Shown here in pieces: positions 7,945 to 15,271 of a DNA stretch of 64,000 bases. Location of the stretch: NCBI GenBank assembly GCA_002898235.1, contig BEIL01000002.1:51264-115263 (forward strand), in the 5' to 3' direction. A program made the translations under genes and the position numbers. Position 1 is the first letter of the stretch. Every line of letters begins with the position of its first letter. The stretch is from a bacterium HR35. GTDB lineage: Bacteria > Patescibacteriota > Minisyncoccia > UBA6257 > HR35. Under the pieces are notes generated by a model. It was not told the origin of the DNA, searched no databases, and was given only the letters and a program-made list of their open reading frames with translations.

Positions 7945-10900
7945 ATGAGACAAAAACAAAAAATTTCTTTTATTAAAAGGTTTTTTACCAAAGAAAATGT
8001 TCATCCCTACGACGAAGTAAATTGGATAAAAACTACAGCTGAAATTCCTGGTTCTGGTTTTAGAATGGAAGATGTAGAATTTCCTGATTTTTACAGCCAA
8101 AATGCAATTAATATCATTGCTTCTAAATATTTCAAAGTAAATAAAGGCAAACAAGAAAAAAGCTTAAAAGAACTTATTGATCGGGTTGTCAAAACCTCTA
8201 AAAAATGGGGATTAGAACAAGGATATTTTGATGAAAAAGAGGCAGAAATTTTTGAAGCAGAATTAACTTATATTTTACTTCATCAATATGCTGCTTTTAA
8301 TTCTCCTGTTTGGTTTAATTTTGGAGTTGAAGGAAGACCTCAAACTGGTGCTGCATGTTTTATCTTAGATGTTGAAGATAGTATGGAGTCAATTTTGGAT
8401 TGGATTAAAACCGAAGGAATGATTTTTAAAGGAGGTTCTGGTTCAGGAGTTAATTTATCAAAACTAAGAGCAAAAGGAGAACCACTTTCAACTGGTGGAG
8501 TTTCTTCAGGGGTTATTTCTTTTATGAAAGCAGCCGATGCTGTTGCTGGAAGTATAAAATCTGGAGGCACGACGAGGAGAGCGGCAAAAATGGTTGTTTT
8601 GAATGCTGACCATCCTGAAATTATGGATTATATTCGAGTTAAAGCTGAAGAAGAAAATAAAGTTAGAGCTTTGATGGAAGCAGGTTATGATATGACTGAT
8701 TTAAACAATCCTTTGTGGCAAAATATTTTCTTTCAAAATGCAAATAATTCAGTAAGAATTCCTGATGCTTTAATGGAGGCAGCAATGAAAGATGGTGAAT
8801 GGAAAACTTATTATCGCACCTCAGGTAAAGTAGCCCAAGTTTATAAAGCTAAAGATATTTTATGGGAAATTGCTAAAGCTGCTTGGGAATGTGGTGATCC
8901 AGGAGTTCAATTCGATGACACTATCCAAAAATGGCATACTTGTAAAAATTCAGGAAGAATTGAAGCAACTAATCCATGTGTTCCAGGTGATACCTTAATT
9001 GCAACAAATGAAGGTTGGAAAAGAATAAAAGATTTAGTTGGCAAAAATCCAATTATTATTACTCAGAAAATAGAAACGCGGACTACATACGGACTATACA
9101 CGGACTATACACGGACAGAACACAGACAACACACGGACAAAAAGGACAAAATAAATATGTCCGATAAATCTATGTCTAGTCCAAAAAAATCCATTAATAA
9201 GTCCGAACAGTCCGTGTTAAGTCCGATAGAGTCTGTTGAAAATCAGGTTGTTGAGAAAAGAGCTTTAAGAGTTTTTAAAACAGGAATCAAGCCAGTTTAT
9301 AAAATAATAACTCGTTCTGGTTATGAATTAAGAGCAACAGAGGACCACCCAATTTATATTGAAGGCAAAGGAGATGTTAAAGTTAAAGACCTTAAACCAG
9401 GAGATAAAGTAAGATTAATCGGTGCCGGCTTTGGTAATAAATCTTTAGATTCAGATATTGCTTTTATGATTGGTTATTTTGCTGGCGATGGAGCTATAAG
9501 TTATGATTACAACCATCAAAGATTTAGTATTTTCTTTACTGGAGGCAATGAAGATATTTATGCTTTAAATTACATCAAAAGCACAATAAATGAAAAACTT
9601 CAATCTAAACACAAAGCTCAAACTAATTTAAGAAGATTAATCTCAGAGTTTGTTGTTGCTACAAGTAGAGAAAATGTTGCTGAAATTTTAAATCAATATT
9701 TTGATTTTCAAAGAAAAATATTTAAAGATTCAGTTTTCGATTTAGACAAAGAATCAATCAAAAATATTCTTAAGGGATTATTTACTGCTGATGGAACAAT
9801 TACTGGTAATCCTCAAAAAGGATTTTATGTTGGTTTAGATAGTTCTTCTTTAGAGCTTTTAAAACAAGTACAGCTTTTGCTTTTAAATTTTGGCATTAAG
9901 TCAAAAATTTATAAAAATAGAAGAAGCAAATTAGAACAATACTTACCTGATTCTCAAAGAAAATTAAAACTTTATCAGGTAAAACAACAACATAGTTTAA
10001 GAATAACAAGAAGTTCAAGAGTAATTTTTGAAAAAGAAATTGGTTTTTATGAATTGCATCAAAAGCAAGAAAAATTAGAAAATATTAATCAAAAATATGA
10101 AGCTTATAAAGACCATCTTTATGATGAAATTAAAGAAATAGTTTTTGATGGCATTGAAGAAGTTTATGATTTAACTGAGCCAGAAACATCTCATTTTGTT
10201 GCTAATGGTATTTTAGTTCACAATTGTGCTGAATATATATTTCTTAACTGGACAAGCTGCAATCTTAGTTCAATTAATCTCTTAAAGTTTCTTAAAGATG
10301 ATAGTAAATTTGATGTTCCTGCATTTCTTCATACTGTTAGAGTAATGTTTTTAGCTCAAGATATTATGGTTTCTAAAGCTGATTATCCTCATCCAAAAAT
10401 TGCTGAAGAAACTAAAAAATACCGAACAATCGGCTTGGGTTATACAAATTTAGGTGCTTTGATTATGGCATTAGGCCTTCCTTATGATTCTGATGAAGCT
10501 CGAGATTTAGCTGCCAGCATTACAGCTTTAATGACAGGCGAAGCTTACAAACTTTCAACTGAAATTTCAGCCAAACTTGGTCCATTTCCTGAATATGAAA
10601 AAAATAAAGAACCAATGCTTGAAGTAATGGAGCTTCATCGTAAAGCATTAAAAAATGTTAATGAAAATGATTTTAATAAAGAGATTTTAAATAAAGCTAA
10701 AGAAGTATGGGATGAAGTAATTGAGCAAGGTAAAAAATATGGTTTTCGTAATGCTCAAGCAACAGTTATCGCGCCTACTGGGACAATAAGTTTTATGATG
10801 GATGCTGATACTACTGGAGTTGAACCTGATTTTGCTTTAGTTAAAATGAAACAACTTGTCGGCGGTGGTTATATGAAAATTGTAAATAAAACAGTTCCTC

Positions 10901-11841
10901 TTGCTTTAAGAAGGCTTGGTTATAGCGAAAAGGAAATCGAAGATATTGTTAAACACTTAGAAGAAACCCAAAATATTGAAACAGCTCCGCATCTTAAACC
11001 AGAACATTTACCTGTTTTTGATTGTGCTATTAAACCACCTGGAGGAAAAAGATATATTCATTGGTTAGGACATGTAAAGATGGTTGCTGCTATTCAACCC
11101 TTCATAAGTGGTGGAATTTCAAAAACCTTCAATATGCCTAATGAAACAACAATTCAAGAAATTTATGATGCTTACTTTACTGCTTGGAAATTAGGAATTA
11201 AATGTTTTTCTGTTTATCGTGATGGTTCAAAAGCAACTCAAGCTTTATATACTGAAAAGAAGGAAAAGAAACCTCAAGAAAAACTTGGTAGAAGAAGGTT
11301 ACCTGATATTAGGCCATCTGAAACTCATAAATTCTCAGTTGGTGGTCATGAGGGTTATCTAACTTATAGCACTTTTGAAGATGGCAGTCTTGGAGAAATC
11401 TTCATCCGAATGGCAAAGCAGGGCAGTACTTTAGCAGGCCTTTTAGATGCTTTTGCAATTGCAGTTTCAATTGCTCTTCAATATGGAGTGCCCTTAAAAG
11501 AACTTGCTAGTAAATTCATTAATATGAGATTTGAACCATTGGGCTTAACTAATAATGAAAAAATAAAAACAGCTACCTCAATAGTGGATTACATATTTAA
11601 ATATTTAGCTTACCGTTTTCTTTCTAAAGATGAATTAGAAGAATTGGGTCTTTTGACTGAAGTTGATAAAGAAAAACTAGTTTTAAAAGAACATCCAACG
11701 CTATTTGAAATAAAAAATAATCCAAACAATAATTTAGCTGAAATTTCAGGCCCCCCATGTGTTCATTGTGGAGGAATAACAATTAAAACTGGTGCTTGTT
11801 ATACTTGTATAAGTTGCGGAGAAACTACAAGTTGTGGCTAA
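7945..11841 (+). CDS. nrdJ: adenosylcobalamin-dependent (class II) ribonucleotide reductase NrdJ, interrupted by an in-frame intein
   Basis: Extein junction TNP|C..HN|CAEYIFLNWTSCNLSSINL restores the RNR active-site motif NPCAE...CNL; C-terminal CxxC..CxxC zinc ribbon; extein length about 882 aa. Confidence 0.75.
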   Translation: MRQKQKISFIKRFFTKENVHPYDEVNWIKTTAEIPGSGFRMEDVEFPDFYSQNAINIIASKYFKVNKGKQEKSLKELIDRVVKTSKKWGLEQGYFDEKEAEIFEAELTYILLHQYAAFNSPVWFNFGVEGRPQTGAACFILDVEDSMESILDWIKTEGMIFKGGSGSGVNLSKLRAKGEPLSTGGVSSGVISFMKAADAVAGSIKSGGTTRRAAKMVVLNADHPEIMDYIRVKAEEENKVRALMEAGYDMTDLNNPLWQNIFFQNANNSVRIPDALMEAAMKDGEWKTYYRTSGKVAQVYKAKDILWEIAKAAWECGDPGVQFDDTIQKWHTCKNSGRIEATNPCVPGDTLIATNEGWKRIKDLVGKNPIIITQKIETRTTYGLYTDYTRTEHRQHTDKKDKINMSDKSMSSPKKSINKSEQSVLSPIESVENQVVEKRALRVFKTGIKPVYKIITRSGYELRATEDHPIYIEGKGDVKVKDLKPGDKVRLIGAGFGNKSLDSDIAFMIGYFAGDGAISYDYNHQRFSIFFTGGNEDIYALNYIKSTINEKLQSKHKAQTNLRRLISEFVVATSRENVAEILNQYFDFQRKIFKDSVFDLDKESIKNILKGLFTADGTITGNPQKGFYVGLDSSSLELLKQVQLLLLNFGIKSKIYKNRRSKLEQYLPDSQRKLKLYQVKQQHSLRITRSSRVIFEKEIGFYELHQKQEKLENINQKYEAYKDHLYDEIKEIVFDGIEEVYDLTEPETSHFVANGILVHNCAEYIFLNWTSCNLSSINLLKFLKDDSKFDVPAFLHTVRVMFLAQDIMVSKADYPHPKIAEETKKYRTIGLGYTNLGALIMALGLPYDSDEARDLAASITALMTGEAYKLSTEISAKLGPFPEYEKNKEPMLEVMELHRKALKNVNENDFNKEILNKAKEVWDEVIEQGKKYGFRNAQATVIAPTGTISFMMDADTTGVEPDFALVKMKQLVGGGYMKIVNKTVPLALRRLGYSEKEIEDIVKHLEETQNIETAPHLKPEHLPVFDCAIKPPGGKRYIHWLGHVKMVAAIQPFISGGISKTFNMPNETTIQEIYDAYFTAWKLGIKCFSVYRDGSKATQALYTEKKEKKPQEKLGRRRLPDIRPSETHKFSVGGHEGYLTYSTFEDGSLGEIFIRMAKQGSTLAGLLDAFAIAVSIALQYGVPLKELASKFINMRFEPLGLTNNEKIKTATSIVDYIFKYLAYRFLSKDELEELGLLTEVDKEKLVLKEHPTLFEIKNNPNNNLAEISGPPCVHCGGITIKTGACYTCISCGETTSCG
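8977..10224 (+). mobile_element. intein (416 aa) with LAGLIDADG homing-endonuclease domain inserted at the RNR catalytic Cys
   Basis: Block A CVPGDTLIATNEG, block B ATEDHPIYIEG, two LAGLIDADG motifs (IGYFAGDGAIS, LKGLFTADGTITG), block F/G ...SHFVANGILVHN followed by the +1 Cys. Confidence 0.85.
9078..9236. repeat. imperfect palindromic array of ~11-nt repeats (cggac units on the left, gtccg units on the right) lying in-frame inside the intein
   Basis: tacacggacta repeated in tandem about 6 times, then mirror-image gtccg-containing units; local centre ggacaaaataaatatgtcc near 9142-9160; GC-richer than surroundings. Confidence 0.6.
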
Positions 11842-11873: not shown

Positions 11874-13054
11874 ATGCCAAAAAGTAATGAACCCGTTAGA
11901 TTTGATGATTTTGAGAAACGTCTTAGAGAGAAAGAAAAGGAACATTTAGATTTAATCCATCTTCTTAATGATTTGAATTGGTTAAAAAACTCTTAGCTCT
12001 TTTTGAAGTTTTGTTTATTCATATAAAATCTAATTTGGATAAAATCAAAATTAGCGAAGACGACTATTTATTAAATTTAGAAAACTTTGAGAATTTAGTA
12101 GCACCTAATGTAGGAGAAGAAAATATCGGTATGATTTTAAATATTCTTAGAGAAAAAGGGGGACTACCGGCAAATATTAATGAAATAAAATGGAAAGAAT
12201 TTTTAGAATATCTCGAAAAAGCTTTTGAAAATTTATTTAATTCTATTAAAGGATTTTATGCCGACGAAGAATTAAAAAATAAAGTATTAGAAACTCTTAA
12301 CGAACTTATGTCTCAAATTGATTTATATTTAGAATGTCTCCCCGAACTTTTGCCATTTGATCAGATTTTAATTAAAGATCATTCATCTCCAATTATCAGA
12401 AATATTAGAGAAAAATATAGAGAATTTTTAAAAAGGATTAAGAAAGAAGCAGAAGATATTAAAGATATGTTTGAAGATGAGGTTTTTGGGTATTTGAGAG
12501 AAAGAATAGATGAATTTCAGGAAAGAATAAATACCAAAGTTAAATCTGGTTTTAATAATTCATTAGAAGATATAGATAAAATTATTAAACTTTCTGAAAG
12601 GCTAATAGATAACATCAAATCAAACCCTGAAATAATAGAAAAATTTATTAATGTTTTTTATAGTAGAATATGCGTCATCTATTTCGAATTATTCTATTAT
12701 AGAATTCAAGTTGGTAATATTACTAGAGATCTATCTAAGTTATCTAGAGAAGTTGATACTAGAAGATTAAAAAAGAAAGAGAAAGCCCAAAATTTATTTG
12801 ATAGTTTGAAAAAAAGTTTTGAAATAGTTTTAAAAAAAATAGAGGAAATCAAAAAGAAAATTAATTCCTTAATTTCTGAAATCAATCGGTTAGAAAATTT
12901 ATCAGTAGAAGTTCCTAAATATGAAAAAAGTCTAAAAGAATTTTTATTAAAAAATTTTGAAGATTTAATAAAATCATTAGATAATGTTCTAGATGAAATT
13001 CAAAATTTATTTAAAGTGATAGAATCAATAAAAGAGAGTATATCTTCAAAATAA
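11874..13054 (+). CDS. hypothetical all-alpha/coiled-coil protein; apparent frameshift at an A6 run (11984-11989) splits a 40-aa ATG-initiated N-terminal piece from the 358-aa track ORF (11978-13054, TTG start)
   Basis: Adding one A joins ...LNDLNWLKK to LLALFEV...; the upstream ORF has a proper ATG and no other reason to exist. Confidence 0.4.
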
Positions 13055-13099
13055 GAAATAAAAAATGAAATTTGAAAAATTCGGGAAATTTTTAAAACA

Positions 13100-13597
13100 A
13101 TGAAAAGAAGCCCAGAAAGAAGAAAAAATATAAGAAGACAAATTGAACAAAGAACAAATATACCAGAAGATTATAAAGTGATAATTGAGCAAATTGAAAA
13201 ATTAATTAAAGATTTAAAAGAGTCAGTTGAAAGTTTATTAATAACCTGCCAAACACTAGTTGAAAGTTTACAATATCTTATAGGTCTGCTTAATAGAATC
13301 ATCACTCGTCAAGCCCGTGAGGGAAATATAATATACAAAGGAGGAAGTTTAAATCCAGAAATATTTCGAGATGACTTAGAAGGAGGAGAAAATTTAGAAA
13401 GCTATTTGAATGAAGTTTTTGGAATAGAAGGAGGCAGAAATATTACTTTAGAAGATATAAAAAAGCGAATTGAGGAATTATTAGGGATAGAGGAAAAAGT
13501 AGATGAAATTATAAAATTAATAAATGAATTAGAAGAAAAGAAACAATATTTTCAAAGTTTAGATAAACCACAAAAAAGCCACTGCAACCAAGATTAA
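13100..13597 (+). CDS. hypothetical protein (165 aa, K/E-rich)
   Basis: ORF only; no recognisable motif. Confidence 0.35.
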   Translation: MKRSPERRKNIRRQIEQRTNIPEDYKVIIEQIEKLIKDLKESVESLLITCQTLVESLQYLIGLLNRIITRQAREGNIIYKGGSLNPEIFRDDLEGGENLESYLNEVFGIEGGRNITLEDIKKRIEELLGIEEKVDEIIKLINELEEKKQYFQSLDKPQKSHCNQD

Positions 13598-13602
13598 ATG
13601 TA

Positions 13603-13905
13603 GTGCAAAGAGAAATAAATAGAATCAAATCTGATAGAGAATTATTACAATTACCTCGGACTTTTAGAGACCTTGAATCAAAAATAAAGTCTTCTAAGTT
13701 AAAGCCAACATTTGATAATTTTTCTAAGCTAGTGTCAGGATTAAATAATCATCCAAATCTTTCGTCTTACAGAGATTTTTTTGTTCAGCTTGAAGGAGAA
13801 ATAAGAGGATGGTTAGAAAACATAAGAGGATTTATAGAAAATATCTCTCGTAAAATTAATGATTTAATTCAAAATTTAGAAGAAAACTCATCTAATCTCT
13901 TTTAG
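13603..13905 (+). CDS. hypothetical protein (100 aa)
   Basis: ORF 5 nt after the previous one, likely co-transcribed. Confidence 0.35.
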   Translation: MQREINRIKSDRELLQLPRTFRDLESKIKSSKLKPTFDNFSKLVSGLNNHPNLSSYRDFFVQLEGEIRGWLENIRGFIENISRKINDLIQNLEENSSNLF

Positions 13906-13934
13906 TAATTTAATTCCTTTAATCTTTCTAATTC

Positions 13935-14342
13935 TTAATGTAATCGTTCTAGAAGCTTCTTTTTTAAGGTAGATAAAGCTTCTTCAAATTCCTCCTGACC
14001 AGGAAGTTGTGCTGGCTTATTTTCAAATTGTCCTAATTTTTCTAGAAATCCATTTCTTCCTCTATTAAGTGTTTCTTCAGAAAAATAGGCAGATAATATT
14101 GCTTTTGTTTGTTCGTCTAGGGAGCCTGCAATTTCATTAAAAATTGTATTAAAGTCTTTTATAGGCATTTCGCCCATCATGCCAAAGGCGGAAAGGTAAC
14201 CTTGCTTTCTTATCCCATCCATAACAGTATCAATAAAAGCAATTAATTGTTTTTTTACTTTTTCTAATTCTTCATCTAATTTTTTTTGTTCTACTCGACC
14301 CCCTTCTTCTCGTTTTAAAAACTTTGTCATCTTTTCGTTCAA
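13935..14342 (-). CDS. hypothetical protein (135 aa)
   Basis: ORF directly downstream of the recombinase gene on the minus strand. Confidence 0.35.
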   Translation of the reverse strand: MNEKMTKFLKREEGGRVEQKKLDEELEKVKKQLIAFIDTVMDGIRKQGYLSAFGMMGEMPIKDFNTIFNEIAGSLDEQTKAILSAYFSEETLNRGRNGFLEKLGQFENKPAQLPGQEEFEEALSTLKKKLLERLH

Positions 14343-14374: not shown

Positions 14375-15271
14375 TTATAAAATATTTTTCCTCCTTTTGC
14401 CATGGAAGGCGCGGTGAATTTCTTTAAGTTCTTTATTGGTTAAATGAGTATAAATTTGGGTTGTTTGTAAATTTTTATGGCCTAATAATAGTTGAATAGC
14501 TCTTAAATCAGCTCCAGCCATCAATAAATCAGTTGCAAATTGATGCCTTAGGGTATGAGGAGTTATTTTTTTTAAGATTCCTGATTTTTTTGCATAATAC
14601 TTAATTATTTTTTGAACTCCCCGAGGAGTTATTCTAGTAAATTTTTTGTTTTTGCTTAAATTAATAAAAAGAGCTGGATTATTATCAGTTCTTTTCTCTA
14701 AATATTTTTTTAAATAAAGTTTAGCTAAGGGTGATAAAAAAACAATTCTTATTTTTCCGCCTTTTCCTTTGACTGGTATTTCTCCCTTTTTTAAATCAAT
14801 ATCTCTGTTTAAACTACAAATTTCAGAAACCCTAAGTCCAGTACTAAATAAAGTTTCTAATAAAGCTCGGTCTCTTAAAGATTTTAAATCTTCACCTTCA
14901 GCTGATTTTAAAAATCTATCTAATTCTTCATCGGTTAGAATATTAATTTCTCTTTCAGGAATTTTAGGTAATTCAATTTTTTCTGGATCAAGAACTTCAT
15001 AGCCTTTTTTCTTTAAAAATCTTAAAAAACTTCTTAAAGTAATTAAATAATAACTTTGGGTTTTGATTGAGATGTTTTTTTTGTCAAGATAAAAACGGAA
15101 TTTAAAAATACTTTCTTCATCTAAAGAAGTAAAATTGTTAGTTTTTAACCAGTCAATAATTTTTTTTAATCGTGAAAGATAAACCTTAATTGTTCCTTGG
15201 CTTTTATTTTTTTCCAATCTTAAATAGGCTTCGAAACGAGGTAAAAACGACTCTATTTGTTTTAAATCCAT
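14375..15271 (-). CDS. tyrosine site-specific recombinase (XerC/XerD family)
   Basis: C-terminal catalytic region HTLRHQFATDLLMAGADLRAIQLLLGHKNLQTTQIYTHL (R, H-x-x-R, Y); N-terminal SAM-like core-binding domain. Confidence 0.8.
   Translation of the reverse strand: MDLKQIESFLPRFEAYLRLEKNKSQGTIKVYLSRLKKIIDWLKTNNFTSLDEESIFKFRFYLDKKNISIKTQSYYLITLRSFLRFLKKKGYEVLDPEKIELPKIPEREINILTDEELDRFLKSAEGEDLKSLRDRALLETLFSTGLRVSEICSLNRDIDLKKGEIPVKGKGGKIRIVFLSPLAKLYLKKYLEKRTDNNPALFINLSKNKKFTRITPRGVQKIIKYYAKKSGILKKITPHTLRHQFATDLLMAGADLRAIQLLLGHKNLQTTQIYTHLTNKELKEIHRAFHGKRRKNIL

Follow-up and report, generated by a model that had tools for sequence, protein, structure and literature searches.

How can a gene for an essential enzyme stay useful when its reading frame carries 416 additional codons directly in front of the codon for the catalytic cysteine? 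The question is raised by nrdJ of bacterium HR35, which lies on a 64,000-nucleotide (nt) stretch of contig BEIL01000002.1 (assembly GCA_002898235.1, positions 51,264 to 115,263); we call this whole stretch the window and use its own numbering throughout. We consider it very probable that the additional codons encode a bifunctional intein placed before the thiyl-radical Cys of the HR35 ribonucleotide reductase (RNR) NrdJ, that this intein splices and probably still homes, and that it has itself acquired an in-frame array of short repeats, 180 nt long. The gene and its parts are arranged as follows.

7945 to 11841, forward strand: nrdJ precursor open reading frame (ORF), class II adenosylcobalamin-dependent ribonucleotide reductase with one intein (NF005122, PF02867, PF08471, TSCPD).
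7945 to 8976, forward strand: N-extein, amino acids (aa) 1-344, ending in ...GRIEATNP (extein alignments).
8977 to 10224, forward strand: intein of 416 aa, in which a LAGLIDADG endonuclease domain interrupts the Hint splicing domain (profiles, AlphaFold2 model, Foldseek).
10225 to 10227, forward strand: +1 Cys codon TGT, C-extein nucleophile in splicing and thiyl-radical Cys of the RNR (alignment to T. maritima 322 and yeast 428; PMC2677866).
10225 to 11841, forward strand: C-extein (CAEYIFLNWTSCNL... to the Cys-rich C-terminal tail) and stop codon (extein alignments).

The ORF runs from ATG to TAA, encodes 1298 aa and contains the whole intein stretch. Profile matches identify its product as a class II, cobalamin-dependent RNR: it reaches 1235 bits with NCBIfam NF005122 (cut-off 859), 580 bits with TIGR02504 (cut-off 400) and 60 bits with PF08471, the class II N-terminal domain (cut-off 27); Pfam Ribonuc_red_lgC (PF02867) matches with an E value of 3e-139, and TSCPD is matched as well. 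The product matches P0030, NCBI's 'Vitamin B12-dependent ribonucleotide reductase [bacterium HR35]', at 100% identity. Its C-terminal tail, encoded at about 11760-11838, is rich in Cys (CVHCGG...CYTCISCGETTSCG), and the ending of this tail varies among close relatives, being GETTSCG in some and GESSGGCG in others.

Positions 8977-10224 of the forward strand make up 416 stop-free codons that start with CVPGDTLI and end with ILVHN, flanked by ...GRIEATNP before and CAEYIFLNWTSCNL (CAEY...) after. Deletion of the 416 residues leaves an 882-aa extein that is colinear with solved NrdJ structures. Against the NrdJ structure 7b9p it aligns with an E value of 1.7e-170 and without a gap over the junction, where ieatnpcaeyiflnwtscnlss of the HR35 extein is matched to irgsnpcseymflddtacnlas, and the alignment to T. 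maritima NrdJ (1xje) is likewise gap-free there. In a focused alignment the +1 Cys coincides with residue 322 of T. maritima NrdJ and residue 428 of yeast Rnr1, and the Asn, Glu and downstream Cys of the spliced TNPCAE...SCNL motif match T. maritima residues 320, 324 and 333. It is well established for RNRs that C322 of the T. maritima enzyme and C428 of yeast Rnr1 are the thiyl-radical Cys, that the neighbouring residues are its Asn and Glu partners, and that Cys333 is one redox Cys. By these alignments, the intein sits directly N-terminal to the catalytic (thiyl-radical) Cys of the RNR, and a single residue, the +1 Cys, is predicted to be the nucleophile of splicing and later the radical site.

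The inserted stretch has the anatomy of an intein that carries its own endonuclease, with these parts.

8977 to 9015, forward strand: splicing block A (CVPGDTLIATNEG), with Cys1 as the N-terminal nucleophile (TIGR01445 match).
9319 to 9357, forward strand: splicing block B (GYELRATEDHPIY), T121-E-D-H124 (22-sequence alignment).
9424 to 10104, forward strand: LAGLIDADG homing-endonuclease domain, approximately intein aa 150-376 (PF14528, secondary structure of the model, template modelling (TM) score of about 0.7 with I-DmoI).
9451 to 9498, forward strand: LAGLIDADG motif 1 (SDIAFMIGYFAGDGAI), ...YFAGD171G, catalytic Asp171 codon at 9487-9489 (alignment).
9748 to 9801, forward strand: LAGLIDADG motif 2 (KESIKNILKGLFTADGTI), ...FTAD272G, catalytic Asp272 codon at 9790-9792 (alignment).
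10150 to 10224, forward strand: splicing blocks F and G (GIEEVYDLTEPETSHFVANG / ILVHN; ...SHFVANGILVH415N416), with terminal His415-Asn416 (TIGR01443, alignment).

Pfam Intein_splicing (PF14890) matches with 77.3 bits (cut-off 35.8), NCBIfam intein_Nterm (TIGR01445) with 42 bits (cut-off 24.5), intein_Cterm (TIGR01443) with 28.8 bits (cut-off 15.6) and Pfam LAGLIDADG_3 (PF14528) with 79.6 bits (cut-off 22.5). C1, T121, H124, H415, N416 and the +1 Cys are all present in the HR35 intein; T121, H124, H415 and N416 are invariant among 22 aligned inteins of the same insertion site, and D171, D272 and the +1 Cys are each kept in at least 90% of them. An AlphaFold2 model built on this 22-sequence alignment has a mean predicted local distance difference test score (pLDDT) of 85.7 and a predicted TM score (pTM) of 0.83. 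Its top Foldseek matches in the Protein Data Bank (PDB) are PI-PfuI (1dq3), the Tli and Pho VMA inteins, PI-TkoII, PI-SceI and I-DmoI, the last of which matches the endonuclease half with a TM score of about 0.7 normalised by target length, consistent with the pseudo-dimeric alpha-beta-beta-alpha-beta-beta-alpha fold of a LAGLIDADG endonuclease. Taken by its residues and its predicted fold, the segment at 8977-10224 is a genuine bifunctional intein, with a Hint domain and a two-motif LAGLIDADG endonuclease. A sequence-only reading of this DNA had proposed as much, and it holds point by point: the translation of the single open frame reproduces its 416-aa insertion exactly, from the first Cys to ...VHN and the Cys that follows; removal restores the active-site motif TNPCAE...CNL that it had named, gap-free against both structures; the host is of class II, as it had stated, and the insertion point is at the catalytic Cys; and the blocks A, B, F and G and both LAGLIDADG motifs that it had listed are in place (T121-x-x-H124, D171, D272), with every Hint and LAGLIDADG profile scoring above its curated cut-off.

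The answer to how the gene stays useful would be standard class 1 intein splicing, as the conserved residues and established intein chemistry suggest. The 1298-aa precursor would be translated first. Cys1 would then carry out an N-S acyl shift, and the +1 Cys would attack the resulting thioester (trans-thioesterification); Asn416 would cyclise with the assistance of His415 and so release the intein, and an S-N shift would finish the peptide bond. The product would be an 882-aa NrdJ with the TNP-C-AE motif restored. Before splicing, NrdJ would necessarily be inactive, its radical site being the +1 Cys.

Splicing is one half of the proposed bifunctionality, and the other half, homing, is addressed by the distribution of alleles. 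With the intein alone as query, every homologue found is embedded in an RNR at the identical point, NP/C...HN/C(S/A/G)E. The hosts of these same-site homologues include Actinobacteria, Parcubacteria, Acidiplasma and Halorubrum, at 31-49% identity, and the HR35 intein is at most 49% identical to anything beyond its own small clade. No relatives of the intein were found in public viral contigs. The local picture comes from a search with the spliced 882-aa extein, which yields relatives at 80-88% extein identity. Seven close alleles have an intein at the same site, each exactly 356 aa long and 71-76% identical to that of HR35. Other close relatives have intein-free nrdJ alleles of 889-897 aa at 82-86% identity (for example P0034 and P0036), the kind of intein-minus allele that the sequence-only reading had suggested looking for. 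Inteins occur at three other nrdJ sites in relatives, before the Cys of SAC/FILDVED, the Ser of GSIK/SGGxTRRAAK and the Thr of VIAPTG/TISFMMD, so that nrdJ of this lineage has four intein sites in total (proteins P0031-P0093), with intein-free alleles alongside; one allele, P0093, has two inteins at once. The earlier description of nrdJ as a target of selfish-element traffic in this lineage is borne out by this presence/absence polymorphism at the HR35 site and by the inteins at the three further sites.

The empty site of P0034 (GAAGCAACTAATCCT/TGTGCTGAATATATATTTCTTAAT) differs from the spliced HR35 junction at two positions, both synonymous, within about 24 nt on either side, and this near-identity means that susceptible targets exist in the lineage. 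Such intein-free alleles would be substrates for the free intein, and possibly also for the precursor, acting as a LAGLIDADG endonuclease. Most likely the endonuclease still cuts intein-free nrdJ at the almost invariant sequence coding for TNP/CAE, and repair would copy the intein in. Homing of this kind would account for the patchy presence and absence of the intein among close relatives.

Selection on the intein was gauged from the ratio of nonsynonymous to synonymous divergence (dN/dS, Nei-Gojobori), with HR35 compared with the two alleles for which DNA was fetched (L008, L005). The endonuclease domain gives ratios of 0.10-0.25, the Hint parts 0.08-0.24 and the exteins 0.08-0.15, all of them rough because dS is near saturation (0.7-1.3). 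dS itself is 0.25-1.3 in the intein (0.85-1.3 in the endonuclease domain and the N-terminal Hint part), broadly like the 0.7-1.2 of the extein. Since dS is similar in intein and extein and dN/dS is low, the intein and its host gene appear to have diverged largely together, with purifying selection acting on the intein, and by these ratios the endonuclease is under constraint.

The roughness of the ratios is one of several points that weigh against an intein that both splices and homes. Within the endonuclease domain (9424-10104), dN/dS between the other two alleles is 0.10, and the pairs with HR35 give about twice that value (0.21-0.25), a difference that may reflect relaxed constraint in the HR35 copy or the near-saturation of dS. 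LAGLIDADG_3 matches one stretch only (aa 262-356), and motif 1 rests on the alignment and the model. Endonuclease activity is a prediction that we infer solely from motif retention and purifying selection. Splicing, too, might be slowed by the 60 aa inserted into the Hint domain.

A rival explanation is that the endonuclease has decayed. The intein would then splice with an inactive or decaying endonuclease, late in its homing cycle and now inherited only vertically, a possibility that we take seriously but find rather doubtful. An intein dS that resembles extein dS speaks of co-divergence and not of recent transfer, and it would fit this possibility, as would the raised ratio in the HR35 pairs, the fact that the HR35 copy put up with a 180-nt insertion, and the distance to the nearest inteins outside the lineage, which are only 40-45% identical. 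The two catalytic Asp residues are nevertheless in place, the conserved core is intact and dN/dS is far below 1. The insertion lies in the Hint lobe, outside the endonuclease domain. Intein-free alleles with a near-identical target also persist in relatives, which is the condition that maintains an active endonuclease. We therefore keep to a splicing intein that is probably still homing. Of the sequence-only reading's claim that the endonuclease is probably still functional, the retained Asp residues, the dN/dS of 0.10-0.25 and a confidently predicted fold stand as observed or modelled, and activity follows from them as a reasonable expectation.

The intein has a further feature, a nested repeat insertion at 9070-9249 that had gone unmentioned in the sequence-only reading.

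9070 to 9249, forward strand: nested in-frame insertion, 180 nt / 60 aa, boundaries uncertain by a few bases (alignment to close alleles, G+C content, model).
9079 to 9149, forward strand: left arm, about 7 direct copies of an 11-nt unit (CGGACTATACA) (repeat searches).
9157 to 9236, forward strand: right arm, 5-6 inverted and more degenerate copies with core GTCCG, pairing with the left arm in the predicted single-stranded DNA (ssDNA) fold (repeat searches, folding).

All seven close alleles are 60 aa shorter than the HR35 intein, whose extra residues, 32-91, are IETRTTYGLYTDYTRTEHRQHTDKKDKINMSDKSMSSPKKSINKSEQSVLSPIESVENQV; these residues are absent from nine distant alleles too, and so from every one of the 16 other same-site inteins compared. 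The insertion is stop-free and its length is a multiple of 3. Its G+C content is 0.39, against 0.28 in the remaining intein. Its predicted ssDNA fold is more stable than that of shuffled sequences, with z = −3.5 for dinucleotide and −4.1 for mononucleotide shuffles, compared with −1.1 and −1.9 for two control segments of nrdJ. The AlphaFold2 model gives residues 36-88 a pLDDT below 50 and assigns them no secondary structure; they protrude from a hairpin of the N-terminal Hint lobe whose strands are 26-30 and 92-96. The 60-aa insertion is thus predicted to be a disordered loop, and the array would have been gained at the tip of a beta-hairpin of this lobe, where it would be tolerated at the surface. 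An intron was considered as an identity for the 180 nt and rejected, since the stretch keeps the reading frame, contains no stop and has a length divisible by 3; the same holds for three arrays in the exteins of relatives.

An insertion of this kind, in a gene from a metagenome-assembled genome and in an intein whose splicing is predicted from sequence, raises the suspicion that the intein does not splice and nrdJ is disrupted and non-functional, or that the array is an assembly artefact. We regard either as very improbable. A disrupted gene would hardly keep an intact frame of 1298 codons, conservation of all splicing residues and an extein dN/dS of 0.11-0.15. The identical protein, array included, is encoded on an independently built Logan assembly contig (L001), which makes an assembler artefact unlikely, and an array that is stop-free and a multiple of 3 in length speaks against one as well.

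Searches for further copies of the array gave few leads. Within the 64-kb window there is no second copy by 16-mer search with up to 3 mismatches, Tandem Repeats Finder (TRF), inverted-repeat search or k-mer scan; a search of 5.8 billion proteins gave no match for the 60-aa insertion peptide; and blastn of the array against plasmids gave no match. For terminal inverted repeats or a target-site duplication, only a 4-nt TCAG repeated 180 nt apart was found, at boundaries that are blurred by about 20% DNA divergence from relatives. An exact 20-mer of the repeat, CGGACTATACACGGACTATA, has three unrelated matches in public genome, metagenome and viral contigs, none of them viral. One (L002) is from Oscillospiraceae and has two units only, and another (L003) is an intergenic hairpin on a soil contig. 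We considered the three matches as one family and rejected this, judging them to be chance sharing of a short unit. On the third, L004 (Ga0256838_1031318, an unrelated AT-rich metagenome contig of 1.6 kb), positions 640-790 hold about 9 tandem copies of a near-identical 11-nt unit (CGGACCATACA / CGGACTATACA) followed by one inverted copy, in apparently non-coding DNA.

Arrays of like architecture do occur in the relatives of HR35. The relatives P0066 and P0048 have three more in-frame, stop-free foldback arrays in their nrdJ exteins, each array with its own core, and two arrays lie between genes on L009, a contig of a related Parcubacteria metagenome-assembled genome (GCA_026004535.1).

L005 4211 to 4384: in-frame array in the nrdJ extein, core GCGAAC/GTTCGC, +180 nt.
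L005 4756 to 4921: in-frame array in the nrdJ extein, core ACACGAAT/ATTCGTG, +165 nt.
L009 11507 to 11663: in-frame array in the nrdJ extein, core ACAGAACT/AGTTCTG, +147 nt.
L009 9669 to 9913 and 15032 to 15299: two intergenic foldback arrays of about 250-300 nt, core ACC(C)GGAT, flanking nrdJ and the XerC/D-like integrase gene.

Two of the three extein arrays share one variable loop after MHRxAL, and no clean target-site duplication is visible for any of the three. The intergenic arrays consist of alternating ACCCGGAT / ACCGGAT units followed by the inverse, and the two copies are homologous over their full length: a three-row alignment, made with the first copy and both orientations of the second, gives 74% column identity. 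Hairpin z values of the relatives' arrays range from −4.5 to −11.9. A scan of 54 kb from three more relatives, L008, L010 and L011, revealed no array. The sample is biased to nrdJ loci, so that no enrichment of arrays at nrdJ can be claimed.

Two origins of the HR35 array seem to us about equally likely, each with a chance somewhat short of even. In the first, it is a non-autonomous mobile element, of the kind of a miniature inverted-repeat transposable element (MITE) or a foldback element (compare the Rickettsia palindromic elements, RPEs), and selection has filtered its insertions to those that are in frame and tolerated in loops; the HR35 copy would have survived because it landed in frame in a permissive loop. 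In the second, it arose locally and without any mobile element, by replication slippage of the 11-nt unit and an intrastrand template switch that gave the inverse copy. That the orthologous site is empty in all seven close alleles, that the G+C content of the array exceeds that of its surroundings, and that strong hairpins recur in all of the relatives' arrays, three of them in frame in nrdJ exteins and two homologous between genes, would be expected of a mobile element. The same odd architecture at several unrelated positions (5-9 direct units at a spacing of about 11-13 nt, then inverted units) is difficult for a local origin, as are array cores that look interrelated (ACACGRAMT-like) and the two homologous L009 copies 5 kb apart, which independent local events would hardly produce. 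The private core of each array, with units homogeneous inside it, is on the other hand what local amplification predicts, and no single family of elements is evident from these cores. A local origin is also favoured by an array that is a singleton both in the window and at the protein level, and by the failure to find a target-site duplication. The same results count against mobility, together with the want of a clean terminal inverted repeat and the three relatives whose 54 kb hold no arrays.

The surroundings of nrdJ are those of an ordinary chromosome. The host of the window is a hot-spring, Parcubacteria-like bacterium of the candidate phyla radiation (CPR); bacterium HR35 itself is an unclassified bacterium at NCBI, and its nearest NrdJ relatives are labelled Parcubacteria or Patescibacteria. 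The window encodes RecG, a peptidoglycan-binding protein, a tRNA, a Wzy_C protein, NrdJ, an XerC/D-like integrase, PNPase, aminoacyl-tRNA synthetases and PriA, and it is syntenic with L009. The integrase gene lies downstream of nrdJ.

14375 to 15271, reverse strand: integrase gene, XerC/D-like.

In the interval between nrdJ and the integrase gene (11978-14300), HR35 has ORFs without a counterpart at the same position in L009: one for a coiled-coil-like protein of 358 aa that matches no Pfam family above threshold, one of 165 aa and two small ones. A Cob_adeno_trans gene follows nrdJ in the relatives L005 and L010, but not in the window. An Rfam scan of the window at gathering thresholds returned one tRNA only, with no riboswitch or intron RNA at nrdJ.

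Among known inteins, the best structural match to that of HR35 is PI-PfuI (PDB 1dq3), with a Foldseek E value of 4.3e-16 and TM scores of 0.56-0.61. The two share the bifunctional layout of Hint and LAGLIDADG domains, but are only 12% identical in the structural alignment, and PI-PfuI has an extra Stirrup domain. PI-PfuI is the homing endonuclease of an intein in the RNR gene of Pyrococcus furiosus; its PDB entry is titled simply 'archaeal intein-encoded homing endonuclease'. The insertion site is a familiar one as well. It has been described as the commonest for RNR inteins (Dassa et al.), and, judging from the Halorubrum match P0017, it is probably the allele rir1-b of InBase, for which Soucy et al. 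(2014, PMC4071816) give 55 bacteria, 15 Halobacteria and 5 further Euryarchaeota as hosts. Contiguous inteins at the thiyl-Cys site of class I and class II RNRs have the same insertion point, NP/C...HN/C(S/A/G)E, and the same Hint and LAGLIDADG architecture as that of HR35. Insertion site and architecture are both already known, and the novelty of the intein is low. A distinguishing point of the HR35 copy is its host, a hot-spring CPR bacterium that resembles Parcubacteria. The best-populated RNR intein site thereby gains a Parcubacteria/CPR example, which is useful for surveys and unsurprising, and the lineage around it offers an active-looking homing polymorphism within one small hot-spring group, with four sites, empty alleles and one double-intein allele.

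The 60-aa repeat-derived loop sets the HR35 intein apart from all other alleles compared, and the nested array is the only feature here that could change thinking, although we regard it as a modest curiosity. We searched the literature for in-frame palindromes in CPR genomes and for MITEs nested in inteins and found nothing relevant. Eukaryotic Foldback (FB) transposons have long inverted terminal repeats made of short tandem subrepeats, and are kilobase-scale and non-coding. The HR35 array resembles them in its short direct repeats followed by an inverse array, which together give a long imperfect hairpin, but it is small, bacterial and coding, and shows no sign of a transposase or of mobility.

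The closer parallel is with RPEs, palindromic MITE-like repeats that occur in frame in protein-coding genes (review PMC10969869). Like them, the HR35 array forms a hairpin, is in the range of about 150-180 bp, lies in frame without a stop and appears to be tolerated as a surface loop, the loop being predicted. RPEs, however, form multi-copy families with a conserved sequence and peptide, whereas the HR35 array is a singleton in the window without a protein homologue. Its arms also differ from RPEs in being made of 11-nt subrepeats, and its host sequence, the intein, is itself selfish. We suggest, tentatively and as the less expected outcome, that 11-nt-periodic foldback arrays of 150-300 nt are an undescribed mobile or self-expanding palindromic DNA of thermophilic Parcubacteria that colonises coding sequence in frame, as RPEs do. 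If this is true, selfish DNA would be nested here at three levels, a repeat element in an intein in the catalytic centre of an essential enzyme. A mobile family would also provide a natural example of the size of disordered loop that a Hint domain tolerates between blocks A and B, which is relevant to intein engineering, and it would extend the phenomenon known from RPEs, in-frame selfish DNA that reshapes proteins, to the ultra-small genomes of the CPR.

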